The notes: generated by a model not told the origin, from the letters alone. Positions 28,817-45,269 are shown, numbered from the stretch's first letter. The stretch: 64,000 nucleotides of DNA from a virus (IMGVR_UViG_3300042327_000544:22980-86979), one strand, 5' to 3'. Program-made: numbers and translations.

Positions 28817-29466
28817 CCTTGAGCTGTATTTGAAAATACTAGAGTTGCAGCTTTGCTTTTTACGTTAAAGACTAGGTCTTCAGCTACACCTGCTATTAGG
28901 CTTCCGTTTCTTGCAATTGTAAAGTTTGTTGTCTGTGAAGTTCCTGCTGAATCTACAACAATAACTGTATCTCCAATTGAAGGAGCTGCTGGCAATGTAA
29001 CAACAAGACCTGCTGCTGGTGTTACAAGAAGTCTATCTCCTCTAACTGCTGTATATGAAGAAGTTATATTTACCCAAGTATTTGGGATCTTTCCAGCAAC
29101 TAGGGAAGATAATCCTGTAACCGTTGAAGCAAGAGCGGAAATTTCTCCCCCAGCTGTGCTTACATAGTTTTCAGTTGCATATATTCTTGTCTCGTGATCA
29201 GCAATATCGGCTTCAGCGTCAGTAATTCTTTGTCCGTTAACTGAGCTGTTAATTGATGTAATAGCTGCATCTCTTGCCGCATTAATAGCAGCGATTCTTT
29301 CGGTTGTAATTGAAAGAATATCGTTAACGCCCATAGATTTTGCTAATGTATCAAGTGCTGAGGCCAGCAAAACTAGGTCGTTTGCGTCTAAAGTTGTGGA
29401 TGCAAGAGCGCTTACCTTTGTCTTAAATAGTTCAACCTGAGTTTGCAGTGTTGTATAATCTGGCAT
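28801..29466 (-). CDS. Tail fibre/anchor protein
   Basis: Shared N-terminus with 22660..22992, coiled coil, then VTLPAAPSIGD..FTIARNG beta-domain. Confidence 0.7.
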   Translation of the reverse strand: MPDYTTLQTQVELFKTKVSALASTTLDANDLVLLASALDTLAKSMGVNDILSITTERIAAINAARDAAITSINSSVNGQRITDAEADIADHETRIYATENYVSTAGGEISALASTVTGLSSLVAGKIPNTWVNITSSYTAVRGDRLLVTPAAGLVVTLPAAPSIGDTVIVVDSAGTSQTTNFTIARNGSLIAGVAEDLVFNVKSKAATLVFSNTAQGWRVM

Positions 29467-29474
29467 TTTGTCTC

Positions 29475-32400
29475 CTAAGCCTGAGCTTCAGTCCAGGAAA
29501 TTCTAGCAAGAATGTTTGCAGCCCCTGAACCAAGATTTGTTGCTGTAATTGTTAAGATATCTGGTCCATTAGGGAATGATGGGTTTGTCTGAGACCCATT
29601 TCCGTTTAGAATTGAGTTTGAAAGGTCTCTAACTTTCTTAGCATCAAATGTAGTAACGGAGAAGTTAGTACCACCTGCGTTTTCTGTGTAGAAAGCAAAG
29701 ATACGATCTCCACCAGTAACGGTATTTGTAGGAGATGTAACTGGTGCTCCAGTACCTCTAACTCCTGTACCGTCGTGGTAAATTACCTGTGCGAGAGAAC
29801 CAGAACCAACTCTTACTGCTTCCCATTCTGTAGGGATTGCAATACCGTTCATAGTTGCTGGATTTAGAATTCCTTCAATCAAGAATTGTCCCTGTGAAAG
29901 AACTCCAACTGAGTCAAGCTTCATCTGCATACGGTTTGCTAGTTCACGCAATCCAAAGTTTCTGCCTAGACCATTGTCTGCAGAAGGAGCCACTCTAATT
30001 GAAACGAGTGGACGAGGGGTTGGTGTGCTTCCGAATGTCTGTACTGCGGTACCGTTAGGGTTAATTGCAGAAATTGCTTCATCTGCACCCGCTAAAGCAA
30101 AACTAAATGATGTTGGGGCAACCGAAGTAATTGCGAATGTACCGTTGTATCGGCTTGATCCTGTAACTCTTGCTGAGCTAGGAACTGACTGGAATCCTAT
30201 ATTTGCATTAACTTTGCTAAATGAGAAAGTTGTAGGGCTTGGAACAAGTGAAATTGTATATGTTCCGTTAAATACGGAATCCATACCAGTAATTGTTACC
30301 TGCTGACCTACTGAATAAAGATGCGCTGTACCAGTTGTTAGGGTTGCTATGTTGTTGGTAAGCTGTCTAAATGTAGGAGTATAGATATCATTTACTCCAG
30401 ATATAGTTACGTTTGTACCAGATGCAAGTGTGTGAGTACCTGATGTTGTCATTGTTGCAACACCTGATAGCGCCTGACGATTTGTTAGCGTAGCTGAAAT
30501 TGTTCCAGATCCACCAACCTGCAAGTATTTCTGCATACCAGCGGTAAAGATAAATGACTTATCATCATTAAATCCACCATCCATAATTACGGATGATCCC
30601 CAGTGTGACATAACTGGTGCACAGTTTTGAGAAATTGTTTGTACTGAAACTTGTGCTGTACCAGATCCGCCAGGAATTGTTGAGTCTGGAACAAAGTTTG
30701 ATTGGATAGATGTTCCAAATAGATTCATTGGAACTCCTCCGTAAACTAGAGGTTGTGCGACTCTTCTTACAATATTAACTGCATGTGCTTGAATTGTTGG
30801 ATTATATGCACCAATTGATGTATATTCGCAAATCTCAAAATTAGCTCCATCTGCAATTCTTAGGAATCCTGTTGATGGCCAGAAACTTACGTCATTGACG
30901 TAAATTACTGTGTCTTGAGGAAATAGTGTAGATCCGCTTAGCCCTGATCCCCCTGCAATTAATTTTGCAGAGTTTAGAGGCTCATTAATTGTTTCATATC
31001 TTGCAGGAAGGTTTCCTGATCTCATATATGAAGCGGTATTAATATTATTCATTACCATCTTGTGACACCAAATAACGTTACCGTCTGTGCCTCTTAGTCC
31101 AAATCTAATTGAGCCTGCTCCATACCAAGAGTAATCGATGAATGTCATCTGCATCTTTGCTATATCGAGGTTATATCCTGTTGGACCATTGCCGTCTACG
31201 GTGTCAATGTTCCATTGTGATTGTGGAATCTTTTGAATCTGTGTCTTAAGATAAGGAGAACCATTAACACTTGGTCCTCTGTATGCTGGGGCAATGTTTA
31301 AAGAAGTATCATTGTTAATCTGAATAACTCTATAAGACTGTCCTCTAACTACAATTAGGTCTCCAACAAGTAGTTGCTTTCTAAATCTAGTGTCTACTCC
31401 TGTTACTACATTTGAAAATTGTGTTACTGAGATCTTTCCAAATAGTTCTTTGTTTGAAAATCTTCTTACTGCATACAATGTCCGTCCATCATATTCAAAA
31501 TAGAATCCATTTTGATCATCATATAGTCCAGCTCTTGTTGCTGAGCCTTTCCACTGATATGCTGTTACGAATGAATTAACTCCACCTGGCAATTGATCAA
31601 TTGCGCTAATTGCAGAAGTAAATGTCTTTTGTACAATAATTGTGTTTGAATCTGTTACTGAGCTAATGGTGAATAGGCCATTGAATGGGTTATATGCTCC
31701 CACTGTTTCAATTCCCTCAATCTTAATTGTTGCGCCAGCCTGTAGGTTGTGATCTTGCAAAACACGAATTGTGATTGCATTTGATCCAATTGCTGTGCTT
31801 GATGCTGCAATGTAAGAAATGTCAAATGAAGGGGTAAACTTTGTTCCTGTTGAAAACGTAATTGACTTACCTGACTGATATCTAAAATATCTACGTGTTT
31901 GTCTAAGTGTCTGTGTTCCACATACGTTATTTCCAGTTGTGAGAATAACTCCACCATCGAATGGTCTGTGCTCTACGTAGCCCTCTGGCTTGCAGAATAG
32001 GCCAATTCCTACGGTGTTTATTGCACCTACGGGAATTAGTGACTGTGTCATAAATGAGAATGAATTTGGAGTTGTAACTCTGTCAATCAAGAAGCTTCCA
32101 TTGATTGAGCTTCCTGATGGAGCTGAAATCAAAATTGGCGTTCCTGGATAAAGTCCGTGTGGATTTGTAGTAACAACATCGATTCTTGAAAGAGCTGCAC
32201 CGTCTGATGTTGCTGCCCAAGAATTCAGGGCTCCAGTGTTTCCGCCTGGAATATGTGCATTGTCAAAGATTCCTCCACCGTAAAGTGTTGTTAAGGTTCC
32301 ATCTAGAACGCTGGTCAAGTTTGGAACATTGCCCTTGGCAATAAATGAAAATGATGTTGAGTCAATAATGGTAATAAGAAAAGTACCGTCTGTAAGTGGG

Positions 32401-32972
32401 CTGAGTGACTCATTAACGCTTACCACGTCTCCGTTATTTAATCCGTGTGGAGTTGTTGTTGTTACAACGATTCTAGATCTTGGTGTTCCGCCTGATGAGA
32501 TAAGAGAAACCACATCTAGGGAGTTTCCTCCTGTATTTCTTGAAAAGAATGTTGGGTAGTTGTTTTGAAGAGAAAGAGATTCCCATTTAGAACCCTGCAC
32601 ACCGTACTCAAAGTCAGTATCAATCAAAGACTCTGGATCAGATATTTTTAGCTTTCCTACTGCATCTAAGAGGTCTGATGAAGGCATGAATGTCTCAACT
32701 GGCTCGTCAACCATAATTTGAAGCTTATCTGTTGACTGCATTGAGGCTGTGTTGTACTCAAGAACTAAAATTGTGTGAACATCATTTAGACTGTCGGTTA
32801 GTGTATGGCTTACTAGACCGATTGATGGGTCTGAAAAATTGTAGATGATTTTATTTTGGGTGACGTTTGTGATCAAAAGAAGATTTTGTCTTAGTACAAA
32901 TCTTGGAATTGTAATCGTGGATGTTGCGGGGGAAAATATAATCCCTTGATCGTTAATTGCTCTTCTTGCCAT
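29475..32972 (-). CDS. Large virion structural protein with repeated small beta-barrel units
   Basis: Five T.TT..HGL..G..V.I-type repeats; RRYFRYQSGK and DYSWYGAG lectin-like core. Confidence 0.75.
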   Translation of the reverse strand: MARRAINDQGIIFSPATSTITIPRFVLRQNLLLITNVTQNKIIYNFSDPSIGLVSHTLTDSLNDVHTILVLEYNTASMQSTDKLQIMVDEPVETFMPSSDLLDAVGKLKISDPESLIDTDFEYGVQGSKWESLSLQNNYPTFFSRNTGGNSLDVVSLISSGGTPRSRIVVTTTTPHGLNNGDVVSVNESLSPLTDGTFLITIIDSTSFSFIAKGNVPNLTSVLDGTLTTLYGGGIFDNAHIPGGNTGALNSWAATSDGAALSRIDVVTTNPHGLYPGTPILISAPSGSSINGSFLIDRVTTPNSFSFMTQSLIPVGAINTVGIGLFCKPEGYVEHRPFDGGVILTTGNNVCGTQTLRQTRRYFRYQSGKSITFSTGTKFTPSFDISYIAASSTAIGSNAITIRVLQDHNLQAGATIKIEGIETVGAYNPFNGLFTISSVTDSNTIIVQKTFTSAISAIDQLPGGVNSFVTAYQWKGSATRAGLYDDQNGFYFEYDGRTLYAVRRFSNKELFGKISVTQFSNVVTGVDTRFRKQLLVGDLIVVRGQSYRVIQINNDTSLNIAPAYRGPSVNGSPYLKTQIQKIPQSQWNIDTVDGNGPTGYNLDIAKMQMTFIDYSWYGAGSIRFGLRGTDGNVIWCHKMVMNNINTASYMRSGNLPARYETINEPLNSAKLIAGGSGLSGSTLFPQDTVIYVNDVSFWPSTGFLRIADGANFEICEYTSIGAYNPTIQAHAVNIVRRVAQPLVYGGVPMNLFGTSIQSNFVPDSTIPGGSGTAQVSVQTISQNCAPVMSHWGSSVIMDGGFNDDKSFIFTAGMQKYLQVGGSGTISATLTNRQALSGVATMTTSGTHTLASGTNVTISGVNDIYTPTFRQLTNNIATLTTGTAHLYSVGQQVTITGMDSVFNGTYTISLVPSPTTFSFSKVNANIGFQSVPSSARVTGSSRYNGTFAITSVAPTSFSFALAGADEAISAINPNGTAVQTFGSTPTPRPLVSIRVAPSADNGLGRNFGLRELANRMQMKLDSVGVLSQGQFLIEGILNPATMNGIAIPTEWEAVRVGSGSLAQVIYHDGTGVRGTGAPVTSPTNTVTGGDRIFAFYTENAGGTNFSVTTFDAKKVRDLSNSILNGNGSQTNPSFPNGPDILTITATNLGSGAANILARISWTEAQA

Positions 32973-32987
32973 ATTAGTTAGTCTCCC

Positions 32988-33605
32988 TTAGAAAATAAAA
33001 CTTGTTGCCATAATTGTACCATTTATCTGTGCCAAAGATGATGTTAGTGCATATTTTGGATAATAAATACCTAGATTAAGTAATGAATCTAATTCATAGG
33101 CTGAAACTCTTTTTTCAATATCTGCCACAACTACATCTCCAATTGGACCTGTCGGACCAACGGGTCCCTGGACTCCTGCTGGACCTTGAATACCTTGTGG
33201 GCCTCTTACGTTACCTTGTAAAACCCAAGTTGTTGTTGATGCGCTATAAACATAATACTCTCCAGTATTTAAATTTATAAAGTTATCGCCTTCAATTAAA
33301 TTTGTTAGCCCTGCATTTTGTGGAACTGATTGAGCTGTATATGTCTTTGTTCCTCTTGTACCTGGAACACCTGCTGGGCCCGTAACTGATGCGCCCCGTG
33401 GAATTGAAAAGTTGAAAACAGCATTTGTTGCTGTGCCTGAATTTGTAACTGTTGCATTTGTACCTGCGGCAGTAGATGTTACTGTTCCTACAGATACGGC
33501 TGCTGCAGTTCCTGCTGGGCCTTGAGGGCCAGTAGCTCCCGTTGGGCCAGGTCGTGATCCTGCAACGACTACCCACTCAGTTCCGTTATAGCGTTTTAAT
33601 GACAT
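32988..33605 (-). CDS. Collagen-like tail fibre protein
   Basis: Gly-X-Y runs (GPTGATGPQGPAG; GPQGIQGPAGVQGPVGPTGPIG). Confidence 0.8.
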   Translation of the reverse strand: MSLKRYNGTEWVVVAGSRPGPTGATGPQGPAGTAAAVSVGTVTSTAAGTNATVTNSGTATNAVFNFSIPRGASVTGPAGVPGTRGTKTYTAQSVPQNAGLTNLIEGDNFINLNTGEYYVYSASTTTWVLQGNVRGPQGIQGPAGVQGPVGPTGPIGDVVVADIEKRVSAYELDSLLNLGIYYPKYALTSSLAQINGTIMATSFIF

Positions 33606-33644
33606 ATTTGATTACCTCTCCACTATTATACAACATATCTTTTA

Positions 33645-35525
33645 TTAAACCCCAGCCCAAATCAGCGTTTCCGCATCAAAGGTTGGGAATATTTTTATCC
33701 ATTGTCCTGCTGCTGCTACATATAAAGAAGCCTCTGAAGATATGTATGCTATCATTCCGCCGTGCAAAGATGCTGCTGGAAGGCTAGCAAAATTTGTTAT
33801 TTGTGCAGCATTATTTTTAAACAAATCAGAGTAAGTTATTTCTCCTTCTTCTGTTGTTAAGTCTAGCCAAAATTCTGTTTGTGCTGGATTAGGTGGAGTT
33901 GTTGAAGACAAAATTGATTGACCGCTTGTATCGTCAAGATCTACCCAAAAATCCCCTTCAATTGCAGTATACGTAGGTGGCTCTTCATCTGAATAAATTA
34001 AAGGAAGTTCTGGCTCATCTGTATCGATCCACAGGGTGTCCATTCCATAAGTTCCTTCGGCTGGAGGATTTGGTCCAGCAAATACAAATTCGGTAGAGCC
34101 TGCATCATCGTCAACATCTATCCAAAGATCTCCTGTTGATGTTGCACCTGCTGGTGGTGATATTAAACCAACAAAGAATGTGCTTGGGGGCAAAGATGTA
34201 TCTGTTGGAATTAACTCTAGCCCGCCTCCGCCTCCGCCCGAGCCTTGAATATCTTGCCAAAGTAGTCCGTCCCAGACCTTTAGTTTGTCTAGTGGCTTAT
34301 TGTAATAGATTTGTCCGTGTACTGGAGTTAGTGGAGCGGCATCAAGTCCAATAATAATTCCGTTATTAAAAGTATTTTTAGATGTCCATGTGTTTGTTGT
34401 AGATAAAGATAAATTTGTTGTTACATTTTCCCAAGCAGCATTTAAAGCATTCCATACCTTTAGGGCACCTATTGTTCCGCTTCTTGCTTCATCTGTATCA
34501 AACCAGAACTGACCATCTATTGGAGAAGCGGGTGCATTAGAAGACATCTTTGCAGTAGAAGGAGGAATATAGGCCTCTAGAATCATTTTATTAGATTCGT
34601 CATCATAGGTTACAGAAATATTAGGATTTGTTCCATGAGTAAACAATGGTCCGATTGCATCTTGAACCTGTTCTTGGGTTAATTGAGCTACTGCTACAAA
34701 GTTAATCTTTCCTGTAACATCATCATATGTTGCCGTTAAATTTGTATGGTTTCCTGATGTTATAAGGCCTGCTGCTACATCTTGGATCTTTTCGTCTATA
34801 TCTAACTGAGATAGGGGAACTTTTCCGCTTCCGTCAAGTTGTGCAATTCCATCTGCTTGACCTACTTCAGATACAGGAACATATTTAGTGTCGCTTGTAT
34901 TCCCTAGAGCAGATATCGCTGCATCTGTATAAGACTTAGATGATGCTAGAGCTGTTGCAATAGCAGTTGTTATGGTTGTTGAAAAATTAGGGTCGTCATT
35001 TATTGCTGCCGCTATTTCATTTAGGGTATCTAATAGTGCTGGAGAGGTATCAACTAAATTTGAAATTGCTTGATTTACGTATGCTTGGCTTGCTATTGTA
35101 TTTGTATTTACAGATAAGGTTATTGTTTTTGCTACGCTATCGTAGACCTTGTCTATTCCGCTTGTAGCAACAATTGCCGTTGCAATTGCAGATATTGCCT
35201 CTTCGTTATCGTATGTAGCTGTTAAGTTTATTTTTCTGGCTACGTCGTCATAAGCAACGGTTATATTTGTATGTGTTCCAGTAGTTAGTAGGTCTCCAAC
35301 TAGGTCCTCTACTTCTTCAGTATCAAGAATGTTGGTTTCTAGGGTTCGAACTTTAAAGTCTAAGGAGTTGGGGTTTGTATCGTTGGTTTTTCCAACTTTT
35401 GTCTCGAGGGCCTCAATAGCATCATTTGCGTCTGCATGCTGTTTAGCATGTGGGACAGCTAAAACCGAGTCAGTCGGCTGTGGGTTAACTAGAACGTCTA
35501 GGTCTGCTGGAAAATTTGTTGCCAT
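33645..35525 (-). CDS. Tail fibre protein
   Basis: LDTLNEIAAAINDD motif, TNI.VTYDD repeats, acidic G(D/Q)(L/F)W(I/V/F)D repeats. Confidence 0.75.
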   Translation of the reverse strand: MATNFPADLDVLVNPQPTDSVLAVPHAKQHADANDAIEALETKVGKTNDTNPNSLDFKVRTLETNILDTEEVEDLVGDLLTTGTHTNITVAYDDVARKINLTATYDNEEAISAIATAIVATSGIDKVYDSVAKTITLSVNTNTIASQAYVNQAISNLVDTSPALLDTLNEIAAAINDDPNFSTTITTAIATALASSKSYTDAAISALGNTSDTKYVPVSEVGQADGIAQLDGSGKVPLSQLDIDEKIQDVAAGLITSGNHTNLTATYDDVTGKINFVAVAQLTQEQVQDAIGPLFTHGTNPNISVTYDDESNKMILEAYIPPSTAKMSSNAPASPIDGQFWFDTDEARSGTIGALKVWNALNAAWENVTTNLSLSTTNTWTSKNTFNNGIIIGLDAAPLTPVHGQIYYNKPLDKLKVWDGLLWQDIQGSGGGGGGLELIPTDTSLPPSTFFVGLISPPAGATSTGDLWIDVDDDAGSTEFVFAGPNPPAEGTYGMDTLWIDTDEPELPLIYSDEEPPTYTAIEGDFWVDLDDTSGQSILSSTTPPNPAQTEFWLDLTTEEGEITYSDLFKNNAAQITNFASLPAASLHGGMIAYISSEASLYVAAAGQWIKIFPTFDAETLIWAGV

Positions 35526-35573
35526 ATGGTTGCACCTCTTTCCTTATTATACCCTAAATGCTTTTTTACCTAT

Positions 35574-36224
35574 CTATAGAACTTTAGAGACTTGCCCCTG
35601 GTATCTGCCATGCTCTTTATGGTTTCTGTCGTTATATGAAAACATTGTTACCGCAGCATACTTTATACCAGACTTTACTGGAAGAGCGGCGTGTGCAAAA
35701 AGATAGCTAGACGGAAACAGCACAATGTCTCCGTATTGAGGAACATAGGTATAATCAAGGTGAGGGAAGTATAATTCTCCGCCCTCATAGTCGCTATTTA
35801 AATACATAACAGTAGATACGTCGCATGAATAGCTTGGACCGCTGTCTGGGTGTGTTTTAAAATGCTGACCTTCTCCATAACGAACAAAGTTTATTGCTTC
35901 CATATAGTGTAATGCATTTGTATTGTAGGCCTGCATATAATCCCTTAAACACTCTTGAAGATTTTCTGTTATTTGATCATGAACCGATATTATTTCGTCA
36001 GACAGTTCATTTCCTGGCCTTAAAGATTCCCTTTTAATTTTAAAATCGACACAATCTCTGTAATCTAATTTTTGTACGTGGTCTCCAACTGTAGCAACCG
36101 ACCATTTAAACATTGAGCTTTTACCTGAACTCAAGACCTTTTCTAGCCTTGCTGGAATGTTCATTGCTTCTGGCAAAGCGTTTCTGTATATCTTTATTCC
36201 AATTGCGGGTGTGTCGATTATCAT
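35574..36224 (-). CDS. 2OG-Fe(II) oxygenase, prolyl-4-hydroxylase-like
   Basis: HPD...YLNSDYEGGELYF...HAALPVKSGIKY: complete HxD...H triad and 2OG-binding Lys. Confidence 0.9.
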   Translation of the reverse strand: MIIDTPAIGIKIYRNALPEAMNIPARLEKVLSSGKSSMFKWSVATVGDHVQKLDYRDCVDFKIKRESLRPGNELSDEIISVHDQITENLQECLRDYMQAYNTNALHYMEAINFVRYGEGQHFKTHPDSGPSYSCDVSTVMYLNSDYEGGELYFPHLDYTYVPQYGDIVLFPSSYLFAHAALPVKSGIKYAAVTMFSYNDRNHKEHGRYQGQVSKVL

Positions 36225-36240
36225 AATTTCTCCTTTTATT

Positions 36241-36831
36241 TTAGACTAAGGGTATCCACTTTTGTGAATACTGATTTTTTATTTCTGATAGCGGGCTTAC
36301 GTAAAACACTATAGATTTAAATTTATTAGAATAAACAATTTTATTGCCCGCCTCTGAAATAATAATTTCTCCAGGCTCTATCTCAAATTCTTCTTCATTA
36401 ATTAATAATTTTGTTTTTTCTGAGTCTAGGGAAATTATTCCAAACATTGAAGGTCTTGATGTCCCACCAGCATCATACCATAAAGAAGGATCCTGGTCTT
36501 CAATTAATGAAGAGTAAATAAAATATTTATTTTTTAAGTAGCTAAGCTGATACTTTTCACATGCATTTTTTACTAATAGATATACTTTTTGAAAAAGAAA
36601 ATACATTTGTTCGTCATGCATAAAAAATGGATTGTAATTATTTTTATCGTATACTTTAACATCTTTTCCATTAGAATGTGGAAAATCATAGATTTTTTCA
36701 GACTTATCTAATTCATTTATTATTTTTTCATATAGGCCTAGTGTGTCAAACTTATCTTTAACTGAAATTGTTTTTCTTTTTTCTCTGTATATAACGTTTT
36801 CGTTTTTATTTTGACTTTCTATATTAATCAT
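36241..36831 (-). CDS. Degenerate 2OG-oxygenase-fold protein
   Basis: LWYDAGG, FEIEPGEIII resemble the DSBH core, but the metal-binding His residues are absent. Confidence 0.45.
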   Translation of the reverse strand: MINIESQNKNENVIYREKRKTISVKDKFDTLGLYEKIINELDKSEKIYDFPHSNGKDVKVYDKNNYNPFFMHDEQMYFLFQKVYLLVKNACEKYQLSYLKNKYFIYSSLIEDQDPSLWYDAGGTSRPSMFGIISLDSEKTKLLINEEEFEIEPGEIIISEAGNKIVYSNKFKSIVFYVSPLSEIKNQYSQKWIPLV

Positions 36832-37354
36832 TTTTAACCTCTACGTAAGAAACTCCAACAATCATTTCTCCAGAGGAAACTTCAGAAATCTTATATTTGT
36901 ATTCTTCTGAAGATGGAAAAATTATTAAATTACCTTTTGATAGGGGTATAGAAATATCTTTGTTTAAGAATGTAAGACTAGATCCAGTGTGGTTGCTATT
37001 TACCACATAAATAATTGATATAGTATCTATTAGTCCTGGGTTTAAAAACTCTTGTAGGTATGATGTTTCTGGAATTATTTTTAAAAAAACATTCTCTATT
37101 GGATAAACAAATTCAAGGGACCTATCATGAAGATAAGAATTTATTTCAGAAATATAGCTAATATATAACCTTCTATTTTCTAAATTTAAATTTTTAAAGT
37201 TTGTTGTCTTAATGACACCCTCTTTAAAACCATTGACTCTTTCTATCCATGCAATCTCTTCAAAGTTTGAAAGCATAACTTGAAGATCTGTGTCTCTTAT
37301 GTATGAAAAACTGTATACACTTATATCCTGCTCTGAAAATATTTTATTAACCAT
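36824..37354 (-). CDS. Degenerate 2OG-oxygenase-fold protein
   Basis: SIIYVVNSNHTGSSLTF...KGNLIIFPSSEEYKYKISEVSSG aligns with 35574..36224 but lacks the triad; start moved to the ATG after GGAGG. Confidence 0.6.
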   Translation of the reverse strand: MVNKIFSEQDISVYSFSYIRDTDLQVMLSNFEEIAWIERVNGFKEGVIKTTNFKNLNLENRRLYISYISEINSYLHDRSLEFVYPIENVFLKIIPETSYLQEFLNPGLIDTISIIYVVNSNHTGSSLTFLNKDISIPLSKGNLIIFPSSEEYKYKISEVSSGEMIVGVSYVEVKND

Positions 37355-37892
37355 TGCTTCCTCCTGGTCTGTGACCATGCCAGACATCTGGATAAGCTGG
37401 ATCTCTGGGTGGATCAATATCAAACACTGATATTGATGATCTTTGTTCTAATGGAACATCTTTTATTGCTTCTTGCCACATATCTTTAACTAATTTAGTA
37501 GCCTTTTCAGTTTTTTCGCTTCTATCTAGAGGGACATCTAGAATTACATTTAAGTAGTCACTAAATATTGCTCTAGCAACTAATCCAGAAATTCCCAGTA
37601 GGCCCATTTTCCTATACTTTGGATTCACATAAACTCTTTCGTTTCTTCCATTCTTATTTACAGTGCAATATAGATCGGGATAAATTGTAGGTAAATAGTC
37701 TGAAACAATAACAGTATTTTCTGGGTGTATGTCATTAAAATAAATTGCGCTTACGTATTTTATAGATGAATGATTTAATTTTGTAACATGTATCCAAGAG
37801 CCTTTTAATTCATTAGGCATTGCAGAAAATACGGGCACAAGGCTTTCTCCGACCCTTTTCATATCTATAATGTTATATTGCGCTTGAGTCAT
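37347..37892 (-). CDS. GNAT-like protein
   Basis: ERVYVNPKYRKMGLLG resembles acetyl-CoA-binding motif A. Confidence 0.45.
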   Translation of the reverse strand: MTQAQYNIIDMKRVGESLVPVFSAMPNELKGSWIHVTKLNHSSIKYVSAIYFNDIHPENTVIVSDYLPTIYPDLYCTVNKNGRNERVYVNPKYRKMGLLGISGLVARAIFSDYLNVILDVPLDRSEKTEKATKLVKDMWQEAIKDVPLEQRSSISVFDIDPPRDPAYPDVWHGHRPGGSNG

Positions 37893-39057
37893 GAGTTAGC
37901 ATCCTTTCTGTAAAGAACATGTCGTATGGTTCACAGTTTATAGAAATAATATCGTGGGGGGCTTGAACTATTTCGTAAAGATAAATTGATTCCCAGCTGC
38001 TGGTGTCGTATGAATAAACTAGGTCAGTTTCTTTAACTATATTTACGGAAGTTTCAAATTTAGCAACCCCGTCTCTTTTAATTAAAACATAGTGGTACTG
38101 GGAAAATATGTCCTCGTTAATTACAACCGCATATGCAGATTGAGTTTTATATAAAGCTACAATATTTGTAATTTCTGGAATAATATTGGGGTCGTTATCT
38201 GACCAAGCAATGGCTTGAGCCGTTACACCTTCTTCACTTTCATAAGGGAACCCTTCAATATTTGCAGACAAGAGTGTATCTCCTACTTGCAAATCTCCTG
38301 CTTTAACAAGACCGTCAGTAGTTCTAACTAAGGTTGTAATGCCCACACTTTTGCCACCAAAACTAAATAGTGCGCTGAGGTCAAGGTTAGTAAGATCTCC
38401 AGAGCCTCCAAAAAGTGGTGTGTCAAATGCTGGTGGTTCGTTAAATGCTGGTGGTTCGTTAAAGCCTGGGTTAAAGCCTGGGTTGAATCCTGGGTTGCCG
38501 AATCCTGGGTTAGGATTATAGGAAACGGTAAATTCAGGCAACAATGGAACTCTTCCATTATAAACTTGAATATTTCTAGACCCTTCTCCACTTAATAAAA
38601 ATGAAACTGCAATACTGCTCCAAGACCAGCTTTGGTAAGGAATGTTTGTTCCATTTACTGCAATATTTGTGGGCTCAGTTGGAAAAGATCCGCTGATAAT
38701 AACTGTTGTTCCGTTCCAGGTATATGAGCTAATAGAAGATGTTTGTGGTGGATCTGGTGGGGGAGCAAACCCTGGATTAAATCCTGGATTAAAATTGGGT
38801 GGAGCTACATAACCATAATATGTAAACCCTATGGTATCTCCAATTTTTACTACCGAGCCAGAAGCAACTGATTGTTCTTTTATATTTAGATCAAGATTTA
38901 TATTTGCTGTAGACTCTGCTGTTTCTTGCCAAGTAAGCCCTCTTGATTCCAGTTCTTGTTTTGCCTGAGCTCTTGTTAGCCCACTAAGACTGGGCACATT
39001 AACCTTTCTTATTCCAATTTTACTTAGTAGACCAATTTTACGAAATCTTCTGGCCAT
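37873..39057 (-). CDS. PASTA + Pro/Phe-rich repeats + C-terminal Hint domain protein
   Basis: VPSLSGLTRAQAKQEL (PASTA); NPGF and NEPPAF repeats; SVGITTLVRTTDGLVKAGDLQVGD...INCEPYDMFFTERMLTHD (Hint). Confidence 0.75.
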   Translation of the reverse strand: MARRFRKIGLLSKIGIRKVNVPSLSGLTRAQAKQELESRGLTWQETAESTANINLDLNIKEQSVASGSVVKIGDTIGFTYYGYVAPPNFNPGFNPGFAPPPDPPQTSSISSYTWNGTTVIISGSFPTEPTNIAVNGTNIPYQSWSWSSIAVSFLLSGEGSRNIQVYNGRVPLLPEFTVSYNPNPGFGNPGFNPGFNPGFNEPPAFNEPPAFDTPLFGGSGDLTNLDLSALFSFGGKSVGITTLVRTTDGLVKAGDLQVGDTLLSANIEGFPYESEEGVTAQAIAWSDNDPNIIPEITNIVALYKTQSAYAVVINEDIFSQYHYVLIKRDGVAKFETSVNIVKETDLVYSYDTSSWESIYLYEIVQAPHDIISINCEPYDMFFTERMLTHDSSAI

Positions 39058-40404
39058 TTAAACGCTCAAATCGCCAAGTATAACCCAAGAATTAAGTGCT
39101 CGTTTAATAAGTGTAGCGCTGCTCCACTGTGCACGTAATTTTAATCCAGGAGTGGAATTTGGTGTAAATCCATCTCCTGCTATAGTAACCTGAGAGGTTC
39201 CTGTTTGTAATATATCTACAGAATATCCGACTGGGAACAAAACAGAGTCTGCTATTGTTACAGTTCCGCCTGCAGACATTTCAATAAGTCTTCCAGAATC
39301 TATTGGCGCAATAGTATAACTTGCGGATTTAGAGTTTATTGTTATTGCATCTTCAGATCTAACAGAAATTGATCCTGCCATTGATGAGTGGAATTGGCAG
39401 GCATAGTAAAGGTTATCTGGTGCACTTTGAGGAAGCTCTACTAGTATATGACCTGATTGTGCTCCTCCATTTGTTACTCCAGTTGAATATACATTTTCTA
39501 AGCTATAAGCACCTGATACTGTTTGAATCCAAAAAGGGTGTCCTGCGGCATTAACATGAATTCGATATTTTTTACCTTTTTCAAATGTAATAAGCCCATT
39601 AGATACTCCATTCACCAAATAGGATCCAGAACCAGAGTTGGTGACATAGTAATCAACAGAAGGTTCTGATATCGATAAATATGTCTCTGCTGCTGTGGAT
39701 GAATTTAATTTATTCCCTAAAGCTGTTGTAATTGTTGCAGCATAATTTGCATCATCACCAAGTGCTGCCGCAAGCTCATCCAGGGTGTTTAGTGCTGCTG
39801 GTGCACCTGTAAGTAAGGCATTTACCTGTGCTGTTGCATCTGCAATAGCTTCTGATTTGGCTGTAGCAATAGCTGTATTTCTATTTGTTACTTCTGTAGC
39901 AATAGCTGTATTTCTATTTGTTGCTTCAGTAGAAATTGCAGAAGTAATTTCTGTGTCTCTTGCAATTGTTGCTGGGATTTGAGAGTCTGGAACAAAACCA
40001 TTTAAATCAAGTTCTGCAACTCCCTCTGGGTTTCCCAATAAACTTACTGGAATATACCCGACAGATACTGTATCATCTAATGCAGCAATTGCTGCATCAA
40101 CATATAATTTGCTTGCAATAGTGCTGTCAACTGCAAGAGTGATTGTATTTGCAACATCGTTATAGGTTTTGGATACACCTGTTCCAGCAACTAATGCTGA
40201 GTCTATTGCATCTTGAGCAAGCTCTGTAATTTCACTTGGTATAACGCTTAAAAATGGAAGTACTGGCCATAAACTTGTTCCATTTCCAGCTTTTATTTTA
40301 TTTAGCGTTGTATCTAGACCTAGTTCTCCAGCTGCTAAAGGTCTTGTGGAAGAAGACCATTGAGATGAAGTACCTCTTCTAATTTTTATCGTTACTGATG
40401 GCAT
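39058..40404 (-). CDS. Tail fibre with Mtd_N-like N-terminal domain
   Basis: IKIRRGTSSQW...LAAGELGLDT..KIKAGNG; LNTLDELAAALGDD; cupredoxin-like HPF...YYACQFHSSM insert. Confidence 0.75.
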   Translation of the reverse strand: MPSVTIKIRRGTSSQWSSSTRPLAAGELGLDTTLNKIKAGNGTSLWPVLPFLSVIPSEITELAQDAIDSALVAGTGVSKTYNDVANTITLAVDSTIASKLYVDAAIAALDDTVSVGYIPVSLLGNPEGVAELDLNGFVPDSQIPATIARDTEITSAISTEATNRNTAIATEVTNRNTAIATAKSEAIADATAQVNALLTGAPAALNTLDELAAALGDDANYAATITTALGNKLNSSTAAETYLSISEPSVDYYVTNSGSGSYLVNGVSNGLITFEKGKKYRIHVNAAGHPFWIQTVSGAYSLENVYSTGVTNGGAQSGHILVELPQSAPDNLYYACQFHSSMAGSISVRSEDAITINSKSASYTIAPIDSGRLIEMSAGGTVTIADSVLFPVGYSVDILQTGTSQVTIAGDGFTPNSTPGLKLRAQWSSATLIKRALNSWVILGDLSV

Positions 40405-40658
40405 TATGCAGCACCACCATCAACTATTCCTGGACTTGGAACTTCAACTGATTCTACAGAATAGACTGCTCCATCATATGTATGAATATGATCTAGAAGT
40501 CCAGTTATTACTCCTCCGCCAACTGAGTGCCAAAGGGAGCCATCGTGAAATTTTAATTCTTCGTCTACCGTATTATAATAAACATCTCCCATGCGGGCTT
40601 GAGATGGATCTGTTGCTAGTGCTACTGCGTGTAAGGGAACTAATCTTTGAACTGACAT
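40404..40658 (-). CDS. Small virion protein
   Basis: GDVYYNT repeat shared with neighbours. Confidence 0.6.
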   Translation of the reverse strand: MSVQRLVPLHAVALATDPSQARMGDVYYNTVDEELKFHDGSLWHSVGGGVITGLLDHIHTYDGAVYSVESVEVPSPGIVDGGAA

Positions 40659-40669
40659 TTAAAACTCCC

Positions 40670-42058
40670 TTATCCAGTAATTACGACTCTGTAGGCTCCA
40701 CTTGCAGGCGCTGTTGCAAATCTTAGTGTAATTGTGTTTGCTGATGTACGCTCTACATCTGTTTCAACTAAAGCTTTTAGCCCTGCTGTTTCAAAAACTT
40801 GAACAGTAACATCATCTGATCCTAAATTGTGTGTTATAACAAGCGCTGATAATTCTGAAGGGTTAGCAAGATTTTCTGCGTACTTTCTTGCAATTGCATG
40901 ATAGTTTGTTCCATTATTTGTAAGTGTCCAGTTATCGCTTGTCTCATTCCATAGGATTTCAACATCTGCGCCATCGCCACGCTCTACACGAATACCAGCA
41001 TCTGCTGTTGGTGTTCCAGTAAAATCGGTATTAAGATTAATCTTATTATCAACAATATTTACCTGTGTAGTATTTACTGAGTTTATTGTTCCAGCTACGT
41101 TTAGGTTTCCGCCTACTGTTAAGTTATTTGTAATGCTTACATCATCTGGAAGACCAATTGTTACTGTTGTGCCTTCTCCTGCTGTAGGGCTTACTGTTAC
41201 TTCATTAGCTGTTCCTGTAATGTTTGCAACATAATCACCCGTTGTTTGGCTTCCAAGGTTTACATTCTTAACACTTACTGCACCGTCTGTTACGGTAAAA
41301 TCTGTTGTAGCAAAAGAAGCAACACCACGGTTTGTAGTTGTTGCAATTTCTGCATCTACTGTTAGAGTTCCTGCTGCATCATCGTATGTTACATCGATGC
41401 CTTCGCCTGCAACAATTTGTCCGCCAACAATATCTTGTACACGCTCAGCATTTAATGTTACTGCGCCTGATGTTACTGTAAAGTCTGTTGCGTCAAAGCT
41501 TGCAACACCCTTATTAGTTGAAGTTGCATCTTCTGCTGATACTGTAACTGTATTATTTGTTACAGCTACGTCAATTCCTTCTCCGCCAGCAACAGTTAAT
41601 GTGTCAGTTAATAGATTAACTGTATCTGTTCCAGTGTCTCCTGCTATTGAAAGGTTTGTTGCTACGTCTGTTTCGCTTGCTGCGGTTAAACGACCTTGTG
41701 CATCTACGGTAAATGTTGGGATCTTTGTTGTTGAACCGTATGAGCCAGCAGTTACTGCAGTGTTATCTAAATCTATTGTTGTTGTGCCTGCTGCATCGTT
41801 GTATGTTGATGTTAGGCCAACTCCGCCAACGATTGCTGAACCAATTACATCTTGAATGACCTCTGTAGAACCAGACATTGGCATCCATGGACCATTTGGA
41901 GAGGCAAGTCCATTGTAGTAGTACATTGTATTATTGCTTGAGTCATAATAAATCTGACCCGCTACTGGATTGGATGGTGCTGAACTTAAATTCTGAATTC
42001 TTGCATTGAGCAGCTCATTCTTGTTGAGGTCAATGTTGGTTACAAATAATCTTGCCAT
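40670..42058 (-). CDS. Tail fibre protein
   Basis: VTAGSYG..VDAQGRLTAA; ATxTNxGVASF repeats; C-terminal THNLG domain. Confidence 0.75.
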   Translation of the reverse strand: MARLFVTNIDLNKNELLNARIQNLSSAPSNPVAGQIYYDSSNNTMYYYNGLASPNGPWMPMSGSTEVIQDVIGSAIVGGVGLTSTYNDAAGTTTIDLDNTAVTAGSYGSTTKIPTFTVDAQGRLTAASETDVATNLSIAGDTGTDTVNLLTDTLTVAGGEGIDVAVTNNTVTVSAEDATSTNKGVASFDATDFTVTSGAVTLNAERVQDIVGGQIVAGEGIDVTYDDAAGTLTVDAEIATTTNRGVASFATTDFTVTDGAVSVKNVNLGSQTTGDYVANITGTANEVTVSPTAGEGTTVTIGLPDDVSITNNLTVGGNLNVAGTINSVNTTQVNIVDNKINLNTDFTGTPTADAGIRVERGDGADVEILWNETSDNWTLTNNGTNYHAIARKYAENLANPSELSALVITHNLGSDDVTVQVFETAGLKALVETDVERTSANTITLRFATAPASGAYRVVITG

Positions 42059-42072
42059 TTTTTATTCTCCTT

Positions 42073-42516
42073 TTAGGACAGGTACGCTGTCCCTGAAAAT
42101 GGTTGTGCCATTGTCAGTGTAATCTGGTTAATACTATTATAGTCTATTCCTGTTTCTAATATGTCGCCTGCAGAATTTTTGATAGTCACATTTGGATTGT
42201 ATCCTAAATTATGTGTTATCTGGAGGCTATATATTCCATTTACTGGACCTGTTACCTGATTGATTAACCAAGGGTAAGTCAATGTTCCAGCTGTTAGAAG
42301 GTAGTTTGCTGCTCCGACCCATGTAAAGTCTGAAGGCTTTGGACCATAAAATCTTGTTGTGTTTTTGTCATAATAAAAATCGCCTTCAAGACCTAGTGTT
42401 TCTGATGGGGCACCTAGGCCATTTAATATTGTTTTTCCTCTTGGTCCTTGTGGGCCAGGGCTAGAAATAACTACATCGTTTACGACTTCTGTTACTATTA
42501 CTTTTTCTACTGTCAT
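42073..42516 (-). CDS. Minor tail protein (short collagen motif, THNLG domain)
   Basis: PGPQGPRG, GDFYYD, ITHNLGYNP. Confidence 0.65.
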   Translation of the reverse strand: MTVEKVIVTEVVNDVVISSPGPQGPRGKTILNGLGAPSETLGLEGDFYYDKNTTRFYGPKPSDFTWVGAANYLLTAGTLTYPWLINQVTGPVNGIYSLQITHNLGYNPNVTIKNSAGDILETGIDYNSINQITLTMAQPFSGTAYLS

Positions 42517-42866
42517 ACTGTCACCGACCTACTTAGTGCTAAAAAGCCTTCAAGTAATTTTATTTTATTCCCGTTGCTATCTGTCACCATAAGATCATAG
42601 GCTGATTTAGGATAGAATAACTTGTTTGTCTGCGCCGCCGTCATTTTAATGGTTAGCTTTCCAGCAGTTGGGTCTATTGAAATTCCATCTGACAGATTAG
42701 GGGTATTTAGAGTAAACGCTAATTTTGTTCCACCTTTTGTGTCACGAACCTGCATTTTTGCGGAGGCTCCCACTAGACTTATTGGTAAGTTTTGGTTGTC
42801 TCTGTATTCTACAACAAAAGAAAATGTTGCATTTTGGTCTACTTCAAAATTTTTAACTGCTGACAT
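42513..42866 (-). CDS. Baseplate/fibre attachment Ig-like protein (BppU/LtfC-like)
   Basis: VDQNATF, AKMQVR, AYDL...KLLEG pattern. Confidence 0.6.
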   Translation of the reverse strand: MSAVKNFEVDQNATFSFVVEYRDNQNLPISLVGASAKMQVRDTKGGTKLAFTLNTPNLSDGISIDPTAGKLTIKMTAAQTNKLFYPKSAYDLMVTDSNGNKIKLLEGFLALSRSVTV

Positions 42867-42934
42867 AACATCTCCTAAAATAGGAAAACTCCTGTACTTA
42901 TTTTAGCACAGGAGCGATCCTAATTGAATAACAA

Positions 42935-43177
42935 TTACTTGCTTGTAAAACCAAATTCCTTGTTGCTTGGGCTTAAAGCCTTTAGAATAACTGGAGCAAT
43001 TGCTGCTACTCCAGCCGCAATTAAGTCCTTTGGATTTGTGTTCCCAGTCATGTATAGAGCTGTGGCTGCTGCCAAGAATGCTCTTCCATAAGTTCCAATT
43101 GCTGCTAAAATTTGTTCTTGCATTGTTACTTTCCCATCTTTGTTTAAATCAGCCTTATCAAATTTTTTGATAGCCAT
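42935..43177 (-). CDS. Holin-like protein with N-terminal EF-hand loop
   Basis: Two hydrophobic helices (YGRAFLAAATALY; AAIAPVILKAL.P...FG); DLNKDGKVTMQE. Confidence 0.6.
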   Translation of the reverse strand: MAIKKFDKADLNKDGKVTMQEQILAAIGTYGRAFLAAATALYMTGNTNPKDLIAAGVAAIAPVILKALSPSNKEFGFTSK

Positions 43178-43246
43178 TTTATCATCTCCATTTTGAGCGG
43201 GGTGCCCAGAATTTTGGGGACTAGCCCCAATACTACAATTCTACCA

Positions 43247-45181
43247 CTAAGCTGAAATATCTACAAGTTCGCAGTTTCCGTCTGAGCTGCAGGCAAGCGT
43301 AGCATTAGTAGAAGTTCCGTCTTCTGTCTCGTAAAAGGACAAATCTTCCCAACGAATTTCGGCTGGCATCTTTGCAACAAGTGCATCGTATTCAGCCTTA
43401 TCTACTTCTTGATATGGAGCCTGCTTGTATGAGTGATCTGAGTGTGGCAAGAATGAAATTCCAGACACCTCGTCAAAATGCTTATATACCCAAGCTCCAA
43501 CTTCCATCCATTCATCTTCTTTTACAGATACTGTAATTGATGGCTTATGCTCACACCATGCACGTTGGTAAACCAACCAAATGTTAAGGTGCTCAACAGC
43601 TGTTAGATCATTTCTGACAATTGCACCCTCTGGTGCCTTTACTGGGAATGAAAATACGTATGTATCGTTTGGCTTCATTACATCATCTTCTACTGGAATC
43701 CCCACCTCTTTAAGGAAGGTAGAAATTGGATCTCCCTTTGAACCACGAACAGTTCTAATATAGTATGGAGAATGCCAAGCATGCATTCCTGAAGATACCC
43801 CGACCAATTGAGATACTGTTCCAGAAGGCTTTACACAAGTAATAGCGGCAGACTCAGGAATCCCAATTTTCCCAGCCTCTTCTTTATTCTTTGCTCTTGC
43901 TGCTTCTCTAAGGGTCATCAAGAATGACTCTAGTGCAACCAAATCTTGTTTGCCTGACATAAACTTATGCCCAAACTGTCCAGTCAAAGAAACTCCTAGT
44001 AAGCGTTCCTCTTCTGTGTTATCTTTCCAAATCTTACGCAGATACTTAAAGTCTGTAAGAGTAGACTGCCAGGTTCCAAGAATAGTTGCTAGTTCTACTT
44101 TACGTTCAATATCTTTCTTTGTATCATTTTCACGTAGTACGACTTCTGAAAGATTACAAAACTGGTAAGGACGTAGAATAATCTCTGAACACGGGTTAGT
44201 TCCATAGTGTATATCTGGATCTCTTCTTCCATACTTGGCTGCTTGGGCTTGAGCTGCGGCCACATTGTATATGCCTCGTTCTCCTGATTTTGAATCATAT
44301 AGCGACTTCCATTCTGCAATAAACTGCTCCATCTCTGGCTTGCGTGAATACGCAACAGAGTTATTAGACAAGGCACGTTGTGGGCTTGCTTCCCACCAGT
44401 TACCTGACTTTGCCTGCGCCATTTCAATATCATTAATATTAGAAAGAGAAATCATTGCTGAGCGACGAACTCCTCCTACAACAACTACTTCACCAATCTT
44501 GCACATAATGTCGTGGCATTCGATTGGCTTTAGGTTTCTTCCTGTAGCATTCTTAAACTTTGCAATTGTAAAATCAAACAAGTTAATAAGTGGCTGTGGG
44601 CCTGAAGATCTTCCACCCATTGTCTTAAGTCTTGCTCCTGCTGGTCTTACCTTAGAAACATCAATTGCTGGAATCTGTCCAGACCAAAGTAGTGCTAGCA
44701 ACTCACGGTATGCTTTAGCCCAGCCCTGCTTTGAGTCTTCTACTGTAATAACTGTAGTTGACTTCTCTAAAGTTTCTGGGACGGCAGGAAGCTTATTGAT
44801 GTACTTATACTCAACAGAGAATCCTACACCTGTACCGCACATAAGGATATACATAGTCTCATCAAATGAACGTGGTGAATCAACTGGTAAGAAAGCACAG
44901 TTATATCCAGCTACATTATCTCTTTCCAATGCTGCTCCTGAAGTCATAACAGAACGCATTGATGGCATAACATTTCGTTCAAAGACGAACTCTTTTAATT
45001 CCGCAACAAGCTTCTCATTTGGAATATAATTATGGTTCTTTTCTAGATGGCCAAGCATGAAGTTAAAATATCTATCTACTGTTTCGCCCCAAGTCTCACG
45101 ACGATTATCTTCTGATATCCATCTTGCATATCTTGATAACGCAATGAAATTTTCGTATGGGTTTGCAATAGTCTTAGACAT
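43247..45181 (-). CDS. nrdJ: Class II (adenosylcobalamin-dependent) ribonucleotide reductase, monomeric RTPR type
   Basis: YNC, GGVRRSA, TNPCSEI, FCNLSE, TCVKPSGTVS, C-terminal ACSSDGNCE; no small-subunit gene nearby. Confidence 0.93.
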   Translation of the reverse strand: MSKTIANPYENFIALSRYARWISEDNRRETWGETVDRYFNFMLGHLEKNHNYIPNEKLVAELKEFVFERNVMPSMRSVMTSGAALERDNVAGYNCAFLPVDSPRSFDETMYILMCGTGVGFSVEYKYINKLPAVPETLEKSTTVITVEDSKQGWAKAYRELLALLWSGQIPAIDVSKVRPAGARLKTMGGRSSGPQPLINLFDFTIAKFKNATGRNLKPIECHDIMCKIGEVVVVGGVRRSAMISLSNINDIEMAQAKSGNWWEASPQRALSNNSVAYSRKPEMEQFIAEWKSLYDSKSGERGIYNVAAAQAQAAKYGRRDPDIHYGTNPCSEIILRPYQFCNLSEVVLRENDTKKDIERKVELATILGTWQSTLTDFKYLRKIWKDNTEEERLLGVSLTGQFGHKFMSGKQDLVALESFLMTLREAARAKNKEEAGKIGIPESAAITCVKPSGTVSQLVGVSSGMHAWHSPYYIRTVRGSKGDPISTFLKEVGIPVEDDVMKPNDTYVFSFPVKAPEGAIVRNDLTAVEHLNIWLVYQRAWCEHKPSITVSVKEDEWMEVGAWVYKHFDEVSGISFLPHSDHSYKQAPYQEVDKAEYDALVAKMPAEIRWEDLSFYETEDGTSTNATLACSSDGNCELVDISA

Positions 45182-45269
45182 TTTATAATACCTTTTTCTC
45201 CGCCTGGCGGTTAATTTAAATTTAGTGTGAAGATCCTATTCTACCAAAGAACGCTTAAAAGGGGAAGTC

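Follow-up and report, generated by a model that had tools for sequence, protein, structure and literature searches.

The subject of this analysis is a gene cassette at positions 35574-39057 of a 64,000-nucleotide (nt) stretch of viral DNA, hereafter the window (IMGVR_UViG_3300042327_000544:22980-86979), which is part of an 87-kb IMG/VR record that is about 80% complete. The leading gene of the cassette encodes a 394-amino-acid (aa) protein ending in a Hint domain, a type of domain known from inteins, hedgehog proteins and bacterial intein-like (BIL) or pretoxin modules, and it is followed by coupled genes whose products include a putative GNAT-like protein and an intact 2-oxoglutarate (2OG)-Fe(II) oxygenase. 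The 394-aa protein has the following features:

37873..39057, minus strand: gene for the 394-aa PASTA / linker / Ig-like / linker / Hint protein (open reading frame, homologues, AlphaFold model)
38809..39003, minus strand: PASTA domain, residues 19-83 (Pfam, profile and fold match)
38755..38808, minus strand: linker 1, residues 84-101, APPNFNPGFNPGFAPPPDPPQ, disordered (predicted local distance difference test score, pLDDT, <50)
38515..38754, minus strand: beta-sandwich (Ig/IPT-like) module, residues 102-181 (pLDDT 82-88)
38350..38514, minus strand: linker 2, residues 182-236, with NPGF four times, NEPPAF twice and the ending ...LFSFGGK (pLDDT <50)
37888..38349, minus strand: Hint (BIL/intein-like) domain, residues 237-390 (VIA-align, Foldseek, profile match, conservation)
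37873..37887, minus strand: four-residue tail Ser391-Ser-Ala-Ile and stop codon (a "C-extein" with a +1 Ser)

Translation placed the PASTA domain, the repeat tracts, the FGGK/S junction, the Ser237 codon and the THD end exactly where a first-pass annotation of the window had put them: NFNPGFNPGFAPPP occupies residues 88-101 of linker 1, NPGFGNPGFNPGFNPGFNEPPAFNEPPAF occupies residues 184-212 of linker 2, the FGGK/S junction spans residues 233-237 with the Ser237 codon at 38349-38347, and the C-terminus reads LTHD-SSAI. The AlphaFold model, which was built on 39 homologues, had a mean pLDDT of 77.6 and consisted of three confident domains (residues 17-83, 102-181 and 237-392) with disordered linkers at residues 88-101 and 184-233 (pLDDT <50). 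Both linkers are genuine tandem repeats in the DNA, with a 12-nt array at 38767-38793 in linker 1 and 12-nt and 18-nt arrays at 38425-38511 in linker 2, where a recombination breakpoint was also located (38496-38512).

We compared this model with 48,161 PDB representatives using VIA-align with no prefilter. The Hint portion (pLDDT about 90 over residues 237-392) was matched by BIL2 of Tetrahymena (6tmm; Z 17.6, root-mean-square deviation 2.4, 138 aligned), by the hedgehog autoprocessing domain (1at0; Z 17.1, root-mean-square deviation 2.0, 130 aligned), by the C. thermocellum BIL domain (Z 16.7), and by about 25 inteins (Z 12-17). Together with a Foldseek match at E 4e-7, these scores (Z 16-17.6) bear out the earlier proposal of a Hint fold. 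Model residues 237..390 align with inteins from residue 1 to the last residue, such that Ser237 takes the first position and Asp390 the last. At the level of sequence, the family profile matched 2lwy, the C. thermocellum BIL structure, with E 3.6e-6 and within block A alone; for the window protein, none of Pfam Hint, Hint_2, PT-HINT and Intein_splicing was found at E 0.1 or better and PHROGs gave no Hint match, while Hint_2 was touched by just 5 of 39 relatives, at E 0.11 or worse. Because no Pfam Hint model detects it, we regard the domain as a new Hint family that is divergent by sequence.

To examine conservation, we aligned 86 distinct C-terminal sequences and left out one (P0065) as non-Hint, which gave 85 sequences reaching down to ~30% identity. 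The catalytic positions, which in the window protein are Ser237 (position 1), Ser319-x-x-His322 (block B) and His389-Asp390 (the terminal pair), and their neighbours were occupied as follows:

Position 1: Ser in 85 of 85
Block B: Ser in 84 of 85 and His in 85 of 85 (Ser-x-x-His, with Ser replacing the Thr of Thr-x-x-His)
Last residue: Asp in 85 of 85, in place of Asn
Penultimate residue: His in 76 of 85, Tyr in 7, Phe in 2
Residue +1 after the domain: Ser in 75 of 85, Gly in 8, Thr in 2
Residue -1 before the domain: Lys in 82 of the 85 Hint sequences (86 aligned), which is unusual and nearly invariant

In the same 85 sequences, Glu376, Pro377, Asp379, Phe381 and Thr383 were essentially invariant, and Cys375 was present in 82. 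Class-1 protein splicing uses residue 1, B:7, B:10, G:6, G:7 and +1, and Asp or Gln is able to cyclise in place of Asn in inteins (PMC4031507). Since the class-1 catalytic positions are conserved, the phage domain keeps the full set for an N-terminal acyl shift, and the residue set for a C-terminal reaction is also kept in most members. The first-pass annotation had taken the His-Asp ending to limit the domain to N-terminal chemistry, which we found too narrow, given that Asp can cyclise and that His389-Asp390-Ser391 is conserved. The retention of catalytic residues over 85 divergent relatives makes an inactive scaffold unlikely, and because the complete catalytic set is kept, autoprocessing is a sensible expectation; we infer that it takes place at K236/S237.

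The complete class-1 set (Ser1, Ser319/His322, His389, Asp390 and Ser391) is also what would be expected of true cis-splicing by a mini-intein-like element, in which residues 1-236 would be joined to Ser-Ser-Ala-Ile. The conserved length of the tail and its conserved hydrophobic last residue (Ile or Val in 70 of 85) fit such a reaction, and class 1 mini-inteins (gp41-1, NrdJ-1, DnaB) share with the phage domain both the fold (Z 15-17) and the positions residue 1, B:7, B:10, G:6, G:7 and +1. Unlike these mini-inteins, however, the phage Hint domain does not interrupt a conserved host protein, alleles lacking it were not found, and it has a 4-residue C-extein and a terminal Asp. Its flanks are not conserved, unlike those of intein hosts, eight relatives carry at +1 a Gly that is incapable of transesterification, and it is hard to see what would be gained from four added residues. 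No Hint-less homologue was found among 66 proteins or 225 loci, where the shorter forms lacked only the Ig module, and across relatives between 4 and about 11 residues follow the domain. Given that conservation is confined to the Hint domain, that front ends vary, that no Hint-less allele was found and that only 4-11 residues follow, we do not regard it as a mobile intein, and we consider cis-splicing improbable.

Relatives of the protein fell into 66 protein clusters, with 225 relatives in IMG/VR. The Hint domain was the sole part conserved across these differing proteins, which ranged from 188 to 951 aa and carried front ends of one to four PASTA domains, fibronectin type III (FN3) domains, an Ig-like module or Cys-rich regions. 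A low-complexity linker nearly always directly preceded the Hint domain and was of a clade-specific type, namely (NPGF)n, (PPxx)n, (FFPP)n, (YNPY/GNY)n, poly-Pro, (FGA)~20, (GFSHYA)n or Thr-rich, and the recombination breakpoints of the family were located in these pre-Hint linkers. No match to the Hint protein, the GNAT-like protein or the cassette DNA was found among 50,697 cultured-phage records. The one Hint-family match in 185,579 species genomes was a 9.6-kb contig (L085; JBBRXZ010000043.1) binned to a Candidatus Saccharimonadales metagenome-assembled genome; this contig carries the Hint gene together with the GNAT-like and orf196 genes described below and a collagen-like fibre gene, and is probably a mis-binned phage fragment. 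Relatives in BFVD, from uncultured Caudovirales, had been automatically labelled "PASTA_pknB", "Fibronectin type III" and "Hint domain containing protein".

With its PASTA, FN3, Ig-like or Cys-rich modules the N-terminal part is adhesin-like, in line with the cell-wall-binding appendage proposed earlier. The PASTA claim stood as well: residues 19-79 matched Pfam PF03793 at 33.2 bits against a gathering cut-off of 23.2 (E 4.9e-8), Pfam PASTA was matched in 36 of 39 relatives, the family profile matched PrkC/PknB PASTA structures at E 1e-13, and residues 17-83 had the fold of PknB/PBP PASTA domains (Z about 10). By analogy with characterised PASTA proteins only, this domain may bind peptidoglycan fragments. 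As for the segment between the repeats, a beta-sandwich was indeed modelled, but residues 102-181 gave generic beta-sandwich fold matches only (Z 7.2-7.7), so that the label "Ig-like" remains weakly supported. This module is absent from three relatives (L022, P0010 and P0014), with breakpoints within the linkers. We recognised no virion-docking domain of the adhesin's own in Pfam or PHROGs. The idea that the locus is like a ribosomally synthesised and post-translationally modified peptide (RiPP) system had to be abandoned, since such systems have a short leader/core precursor released as a small peptide and there is no leader/core logic here: the products are folded multidomain proteins, and the window protein alone has 394 aa and three folded domains.

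The closest parallels to the Hint protein differ from it in instructive ways. BIL domains of type A, reportedly the subject of Amitai et al. in 2003, share with it the Hint fold, an N-terminal nucleophile, a C-terminus of His plus a cyclising residue, variable, non-conserved surface proteins as hosts, and the lack of a homing endonuclease. They differ in being cellular, whereas the present family belongs to phages, and in having Cys at position 1 and Asn at the end where the phage family has Ser and Asp; the phage family additionally has a conserved +1 Ser and -1 Lys, an extreme C-terminal position, and GNAT-like and oxygenase-like partner genes. The sequence match to 2lwy is limited to block A, while the fold scores Z 16.7. 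BIL domains autocleave at either end (PMC7765530). The hedgehog Hog domain is likewise a C-terminal Hint domain that removes itself, through a first-residue ester, from an N-terminal extracellular-type domain (Z 17.1 to 1at0). In contrast to Hog, the phage protein is without a sterol-recognition region, four residues follow Asp390, the junction is Gly-Lys/Ser-Val rather than Gly-Cys-Phe, the nucleophile is Ser, and helper functions would lie on separate genes.

In terms of phage biology, the nearest analogy is offered by Peptidase S74-type chaperone domains, which are conserved self-cleaving C-terminal modules on exchangeable front ends of phage tailspikes and fibres. Their fold and chemistry are unrelated to those of the Hint module, no sequence match between the two was found, and S74 domains are not known to have partner enzyme genes.

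The genes that follow the Hint gene are coupled to it by overlaps of 20, 8 and 8 nt and one 16-nt gap:

37347..37892, minus strand: orf181, a 181-aa divergent GNAT-like protein, directly downstream of the Hint gene
36824..37354, minus strand: orf199, a 176-aa prolyl 4-hydroxylase (P4H)-type double-stranded beta-helix paralogue without the HxD...H triad (hhalign)
36241..36831, minus strand: orf196, a 196-aa degenerate relative of PF13759-type 2OG oxygenases (extended family)
35574..36224, minus strand: intact 2OG-Fe(II) oxygenase of the prolyl/lysyl-hydroxylase type, 216 aa (Pfam, triad, PDB profiles)

The Hint gene's codons for His389 and Asp390 supply the start codon of orf181 (cATGAc, 37886-37892). 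The GNAT-like gene that had been proposed was found in this position, and all 50 of the 50 best VIA-align matches of its model (pLDDT 85) were GNAT folds, but with Z scores of only 5.3-6.9, below the program's caution line of 8. Foldseek returned nothing significant for this model, a PDB profile search with the GNAT-like protein found only RibT (E 0.77), and Pfam had no match for the window protein, its GNAT models picking up 2 of 30 family members with E values no better than 0.02. Several homologues have been named GNAT by JGI, and the ESM Atlas provided a lead in that 5 of 30 matches lay in clusters with PF00583 in 27% of members. Within the protein, a motif RxYxNPxxRxxG resembles GNAT motif A (Q/R-x-x-G-x-G/A, the CoA pyrophosphate loop): Arg94-x-x-Gly97, which follows Arg86-x-Tyr-x-Asn-Pro91, is nearly invariant, while the last Gly/Ala of motif A is not kept. 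The protein also has a conserved disordered tail, EPPRDPxxPxIWxGQRIGGxNE (residues ~160-181; window 37347-37430), with an R-x-G-G-like motif shortly before the stop; across the family the tail motif is PPRDPxxPxxWxGxRxGG.

The two triad-less 2OG-fold genes of the first-pass annotation fared differently. The first, orf199, was homologous to the intact oxygenase family (hhalign 97%, E 1e-10; profile match within its own genome E 2.8e-10), with Glu, a gap and Tyr where the triad has His, Asp and His. Its true start is probably the ATG at 37354, which follows AGGAGG and overlaps the orf181 stop codon (ATGGTTAA, 37347-37354), which makes the annotated TTG start at 37423 probably incorrect. The second, orf196, appears to be tied to PF13759-type oxygenases through distant relatives only. 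The ESM Atlas gave a lead for this protein, and an extended family drawn from 1.8 billion representatives had the consensus WHDH..PxFHGYY..GHPH..RITIAYD, with PF13759 matched by 4 of 41 members (best E 1.5e-4). In the window protein, the consensus residues His, His, His, His and Arg are Tyr119, Ala121, Phe130, Ile165 and Phe171. Pfam gave no match for it, hhalign found no relation to the P4H-type family (1.5%), PDB profile searches returned chance matches only, and PF13759 searched against the same genome touched only the intact oxygenase, weakly.

The identification of the remaining gene as an intact prolyl-hydroxylase-like oxygenase was sound: its product matched Pfam PF13640 (2OG-FeII_Oxy_3) at 52 bits against a cut-off of 27, and the triad H125, D127 and H178 was invariant in 24 relatives. 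PDB profile matches included P3H1 (E 1e-14), the Bacillus anthracis P4H (2e-13) and the PBCV-1 P4H (1e-10), the nearest solved relatives being prolyl 3- and 4-hydroxylases followed by lysyl hydroxylase. The phage enzyme thus belongs to the same group as the PBCV-1 and B. anthracis P4H enzymes and adjoins a gene with Pro-rich repeats; it differs from them in being optional in its cassette, where it stands alongside two catalytically dead relatives.

We next consider how constant this arrangement is. Across 79 loci with the Hint gene, most of the loci without a given gene ending too early to show it, we counted:

GNAT-like gene directly downstream: 73 of 79 loci
orf196: 66 of 79 loci
Intact oxygenase: 46 of 79 loci
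orf199: 27 of 79 loci

Of the downstream genes proposed earlier as dedicated modifiers, the conserved partners are the GNAT-like gene and orf196; the intact oxygenase and orf199 are accessory. In one related phage (L027), which shares 95% identity with the window on either side of the cassette (45500..39901 and 35566..29003), no nucleotide match was found across 39046..35566, and this stretch is replaced by genes for a 457-aa PP-linker Hint protein, a GNAT-like protein and an orf196-like protein, with no oxygenase. Because exactly this stretch (35567..39045) is replaced in a 95%-identical phage, we regard the cassette as one unit. The boundaries of the exchange coincide with those originally drawn for the locus, and together with the synteny in 73 of 79 loci this bears out the view that the genes form one functional unit. 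The reverse is seen in another phage (L004), where identity reaches 87% within the cassette as against 65-78% in the flanks. The GC content is 0.31 at 36001-38000 compared with about 0.39-0.40 in the flanks, a dip that coincides with the cassette enzyme genes. The collagen-like fibre gene is still 97% identical in phages without the oxygenase, which points to the cassette, and not this fibre, as what the oxygenase serves. In L027, the central part of the gene for a 448-aa fibre protein (39675-39901) is also replaced.

The make-up of the cassette varies between clades. In L031, L032 and L047, where the Hint protein has an (FFPP)n linker, the downstream set comprises the GNAT-like gene, orf196 and as many as four intact P4H-like oxygenase paralogues in succession. 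A distant clade (L070:7974-11947, also L074 and L076) combines PASTA with a (GFSHYA/GFYH)n repeat rich in His, Tyr and Phe, has Phe rather than Lys at -1 and a Phe-Asp-Thr terminus, and carries no GNAT-like gene; it instead has genes for a 258-aa unknown protein and two paralogous ~240-aa proteins, and its orf196 relative retains the His ligands (WHEHGG, PYFHG, GHPH). In the L071-L080 clade, ~20 tandem FGA repeats precede the Hint domain and the terminus is Tyr-Asp-Gly, so that both the +1 nucleophile and the penultimate His are missing.

Related phages carry other gene sets at the same position, which suggests that the slot is a hot spot for accessory cassettes. In both examples the slot lies upstream of a homologue of the 626-aa fibre gene and no Hint gene is in view: L094:450-4418 holds two sulfotransferase-family genes and three P4H-like oxygenases, and L107:3398-6954 holds unknown proteins, including weak DUF6065 and DUF6171 matches. 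Such a recombination hot spot could be all that the Hint gene shares with the downstream genes, which would then be unrelated tail-fibre modification or auxiliary genes; the Hint domain itself would be conserved for docking or folding, be non-catalytic and remain part of the protein. The other enzyme cassettes that occupy the slot between two fibre genes in related phages are compatible with this explanation, as is the fact that 2OG oxygenases are common and poorly understood phage genes. It is difficult to reconcile, however, with a nucleophile, block-B His and terminal Asp that are invariant across deep divergence, or with the recurrence of the GNAT-like gene and orf196 behind the Hint gene in phages whose flanks are quite different, and with start and stop codons that overlap the Hint gene. 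We therefore rate it as very improbable.

The reading that we favour, with a probability of roughly 55%, is that the locus is a mobile cassette for an adhesin whose precursor is processed at Lys236/Ser237 by a catalytically competent BIL/intein-like domain, assisted by two obligatory partners and by optional P4H-like tailoring. The data show the architecture, the fold, the conserved residues, the linkage of the genes and the exchange of the cassette, from which we infer the chemical steps, the virion location and the substrates alike. The cassette, situated between two tail-fibre genes, would have as its main product a variable surface-binding front end joined by a disordered repeat linker, of aromatic, Pro and Gly composition, to the conserved C-terminal Hint domain. 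Ser237, aided by Ser319 and His322, would carry out an N-to-O acyl shift at the Lys236-Ser237 bond, and resolution of the resulting ester would remove the ~17-kDa Hint domain from the mature adhesin (residues 1-236), such that the domain would serve as a self-removing maturation module. The conservation of His389-Asp390-Ser391 suggests a second, C-terminal reaction, in which Asp cyclisation may cleave off the four-residue tail or splice it on. The most likely role of the GNAT-like protein and the ligand-less orf196 product is to bind the precursor or modify it at or close to the junction, with Lys(-1) as one possible target, or else to resolve the ester; the orf196 product would be a dead dioxygenase whose retained function is probably binding. 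The cassette's optional additions, the intact P4H-like enzyme and its inactive paralogue, may hydroxylate the Pro-rich linker, and subsequent glycosylation is suggested by gene neighbourhood only.

Several points weigh against this scheme. Termini are Tyr-Asp-Gly in one clade and Phe-Asp-Thr in another, which means that the C-terminal reaction cannot be uniform. The assignment of the modelled orf181 product to GNAT is weak, and only gene position points to an association of the adhesin with the virion. Because related phages fill the same slot with other cassettes, including sulfotransferases and oxygenases with no Hint gene in view, the cassette enzymes could serve fibres or some other target. 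In raw counts, the intact oxygenase accompanied Pro-rich linkers in 25 cases and was missing in 10, compared with 4 and 10 for other linkers, but a tree-aware test on the Hint-domain tree yielded 3 independent pairs and p=1. The co-variation of repeat type and downstream enzymes that had been put forward as a check was thus not borne out, and we dropped it as evidence, since it cannot be told apart from common descent.

Among the features that lack an explanation, the most suggestive is the nearly invariant Lys(-1) beside an obligatory acyltransferase-fold gene. Proteins with the GNAT fold move an acyl group from an activated ester onto an amine. A second molecule might attack the Lys236 ester through an amine or hydroxyl group, leaving the adhesin covalently attached through its C-terminus to a virion protein, to a peptidoglycan stem peptide bound by PASTA, or to a small molecule, with the GNAT-like protein as the transferase; this would be Hint-driven ligation, comparable to the transfer of cholesterol in hedgehog proteins or to the conjugation proposed for BUBL. 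In its favour, BIL2 from the Tetrahymena BUBL locus is the top structural match (Z 17.6, with hedgehog at 17.1), the acyltransferase-fold partner is obligatory, the near-invariant -1 residue suggests that the product end matters, and the adhesin is without a recognisable virion-docking domain. On the other hand, fold scores do not separate the BIL, hedgehog and intein matches, the protein has no sterol-recognition-like or other acceptor-binding extension, with four residues after the Hint domain, and nothing points to an acceptor, in addition to the weakness of the GNAT assignment; nor would ligation need the conserved His-Asp-Ser end. We think ligation unlikely. Still somewhat less probable is a particular form of it, in which the Hint chemistry would amount to an E1/E2-free phage protein ligase, with an activated Lys236 ester and a GNAT-like partner that, with the orf196 product as its binding subunit, transfers the adhesin onto an amine. 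A simpler chemical variant would have the Lys side chain attack its own ester to give a C-terminal lactam. If the ligase were real and the amine lay on the virion, the result would be plug-in covalent tail decoration with exchangeable adhesins; if the amine lay on a PASTA-held peptidoglycan stem peptide, it would be covalent, irreversible adsorption.

The surroundings of the cassette are those of a phage structural module. From 2 to 46271 of the window, all genes lie on the minus strand and include those for a portal, a protease, a 1165-aa virion protein and several tail-fibre-like proteins, with a class II ribonucleotide reductase (RNR) gene further along. The genes adjoining the cassette are tail-fibre-like:

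32988-33605, minus strand: 205-aa fibre protein, a flanking gene with collagen-like Gly-X-Y repeats
39058-40404, minus strand: 448-aa fibre protein, a flanking gene with an Mtd_N domain

In its portal the phage shares about 60% identity with large Streptomyces phages, and the 1165-aa virion protein is ~35% identical to cyanomyovirus proteins. Only the resemblance of the portal and the presence of PASTA point to the likely host, an actinobacterium; we found no WhiB gene in the virus record. The cassette DNA is present in lake-water metagenomes.

Our search of the literature on Hint or BIL domains in phage fibres, or PASTA in phage tails, returned only classic inteins in terminase or RNR genes, and we found no paper on the relatives in BFVD or on a phage-restricted Hint family with a C-terminal position on exchangeable adhesin modules, a full catalytic set that includes Ser, Asp and an invariant Lys(-1), constant acyltransferase-fold and dead oxygenase-like partner genes, and cassette mobility. 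If the Hint domain processes or ligates the adhesin, as our favoured reading and its ligation alternative respectively propose, this would represent a new route of virion protein maturation, and the family would be a possible source of compact Ser-based tags for protein cleavage or ligation. The cassette also offers a tractable case of pseudo-enzymes, here dead dioxygenases, that are retained as partners, as well as of variation in the host-binding gear of uncultured freshwater phages.

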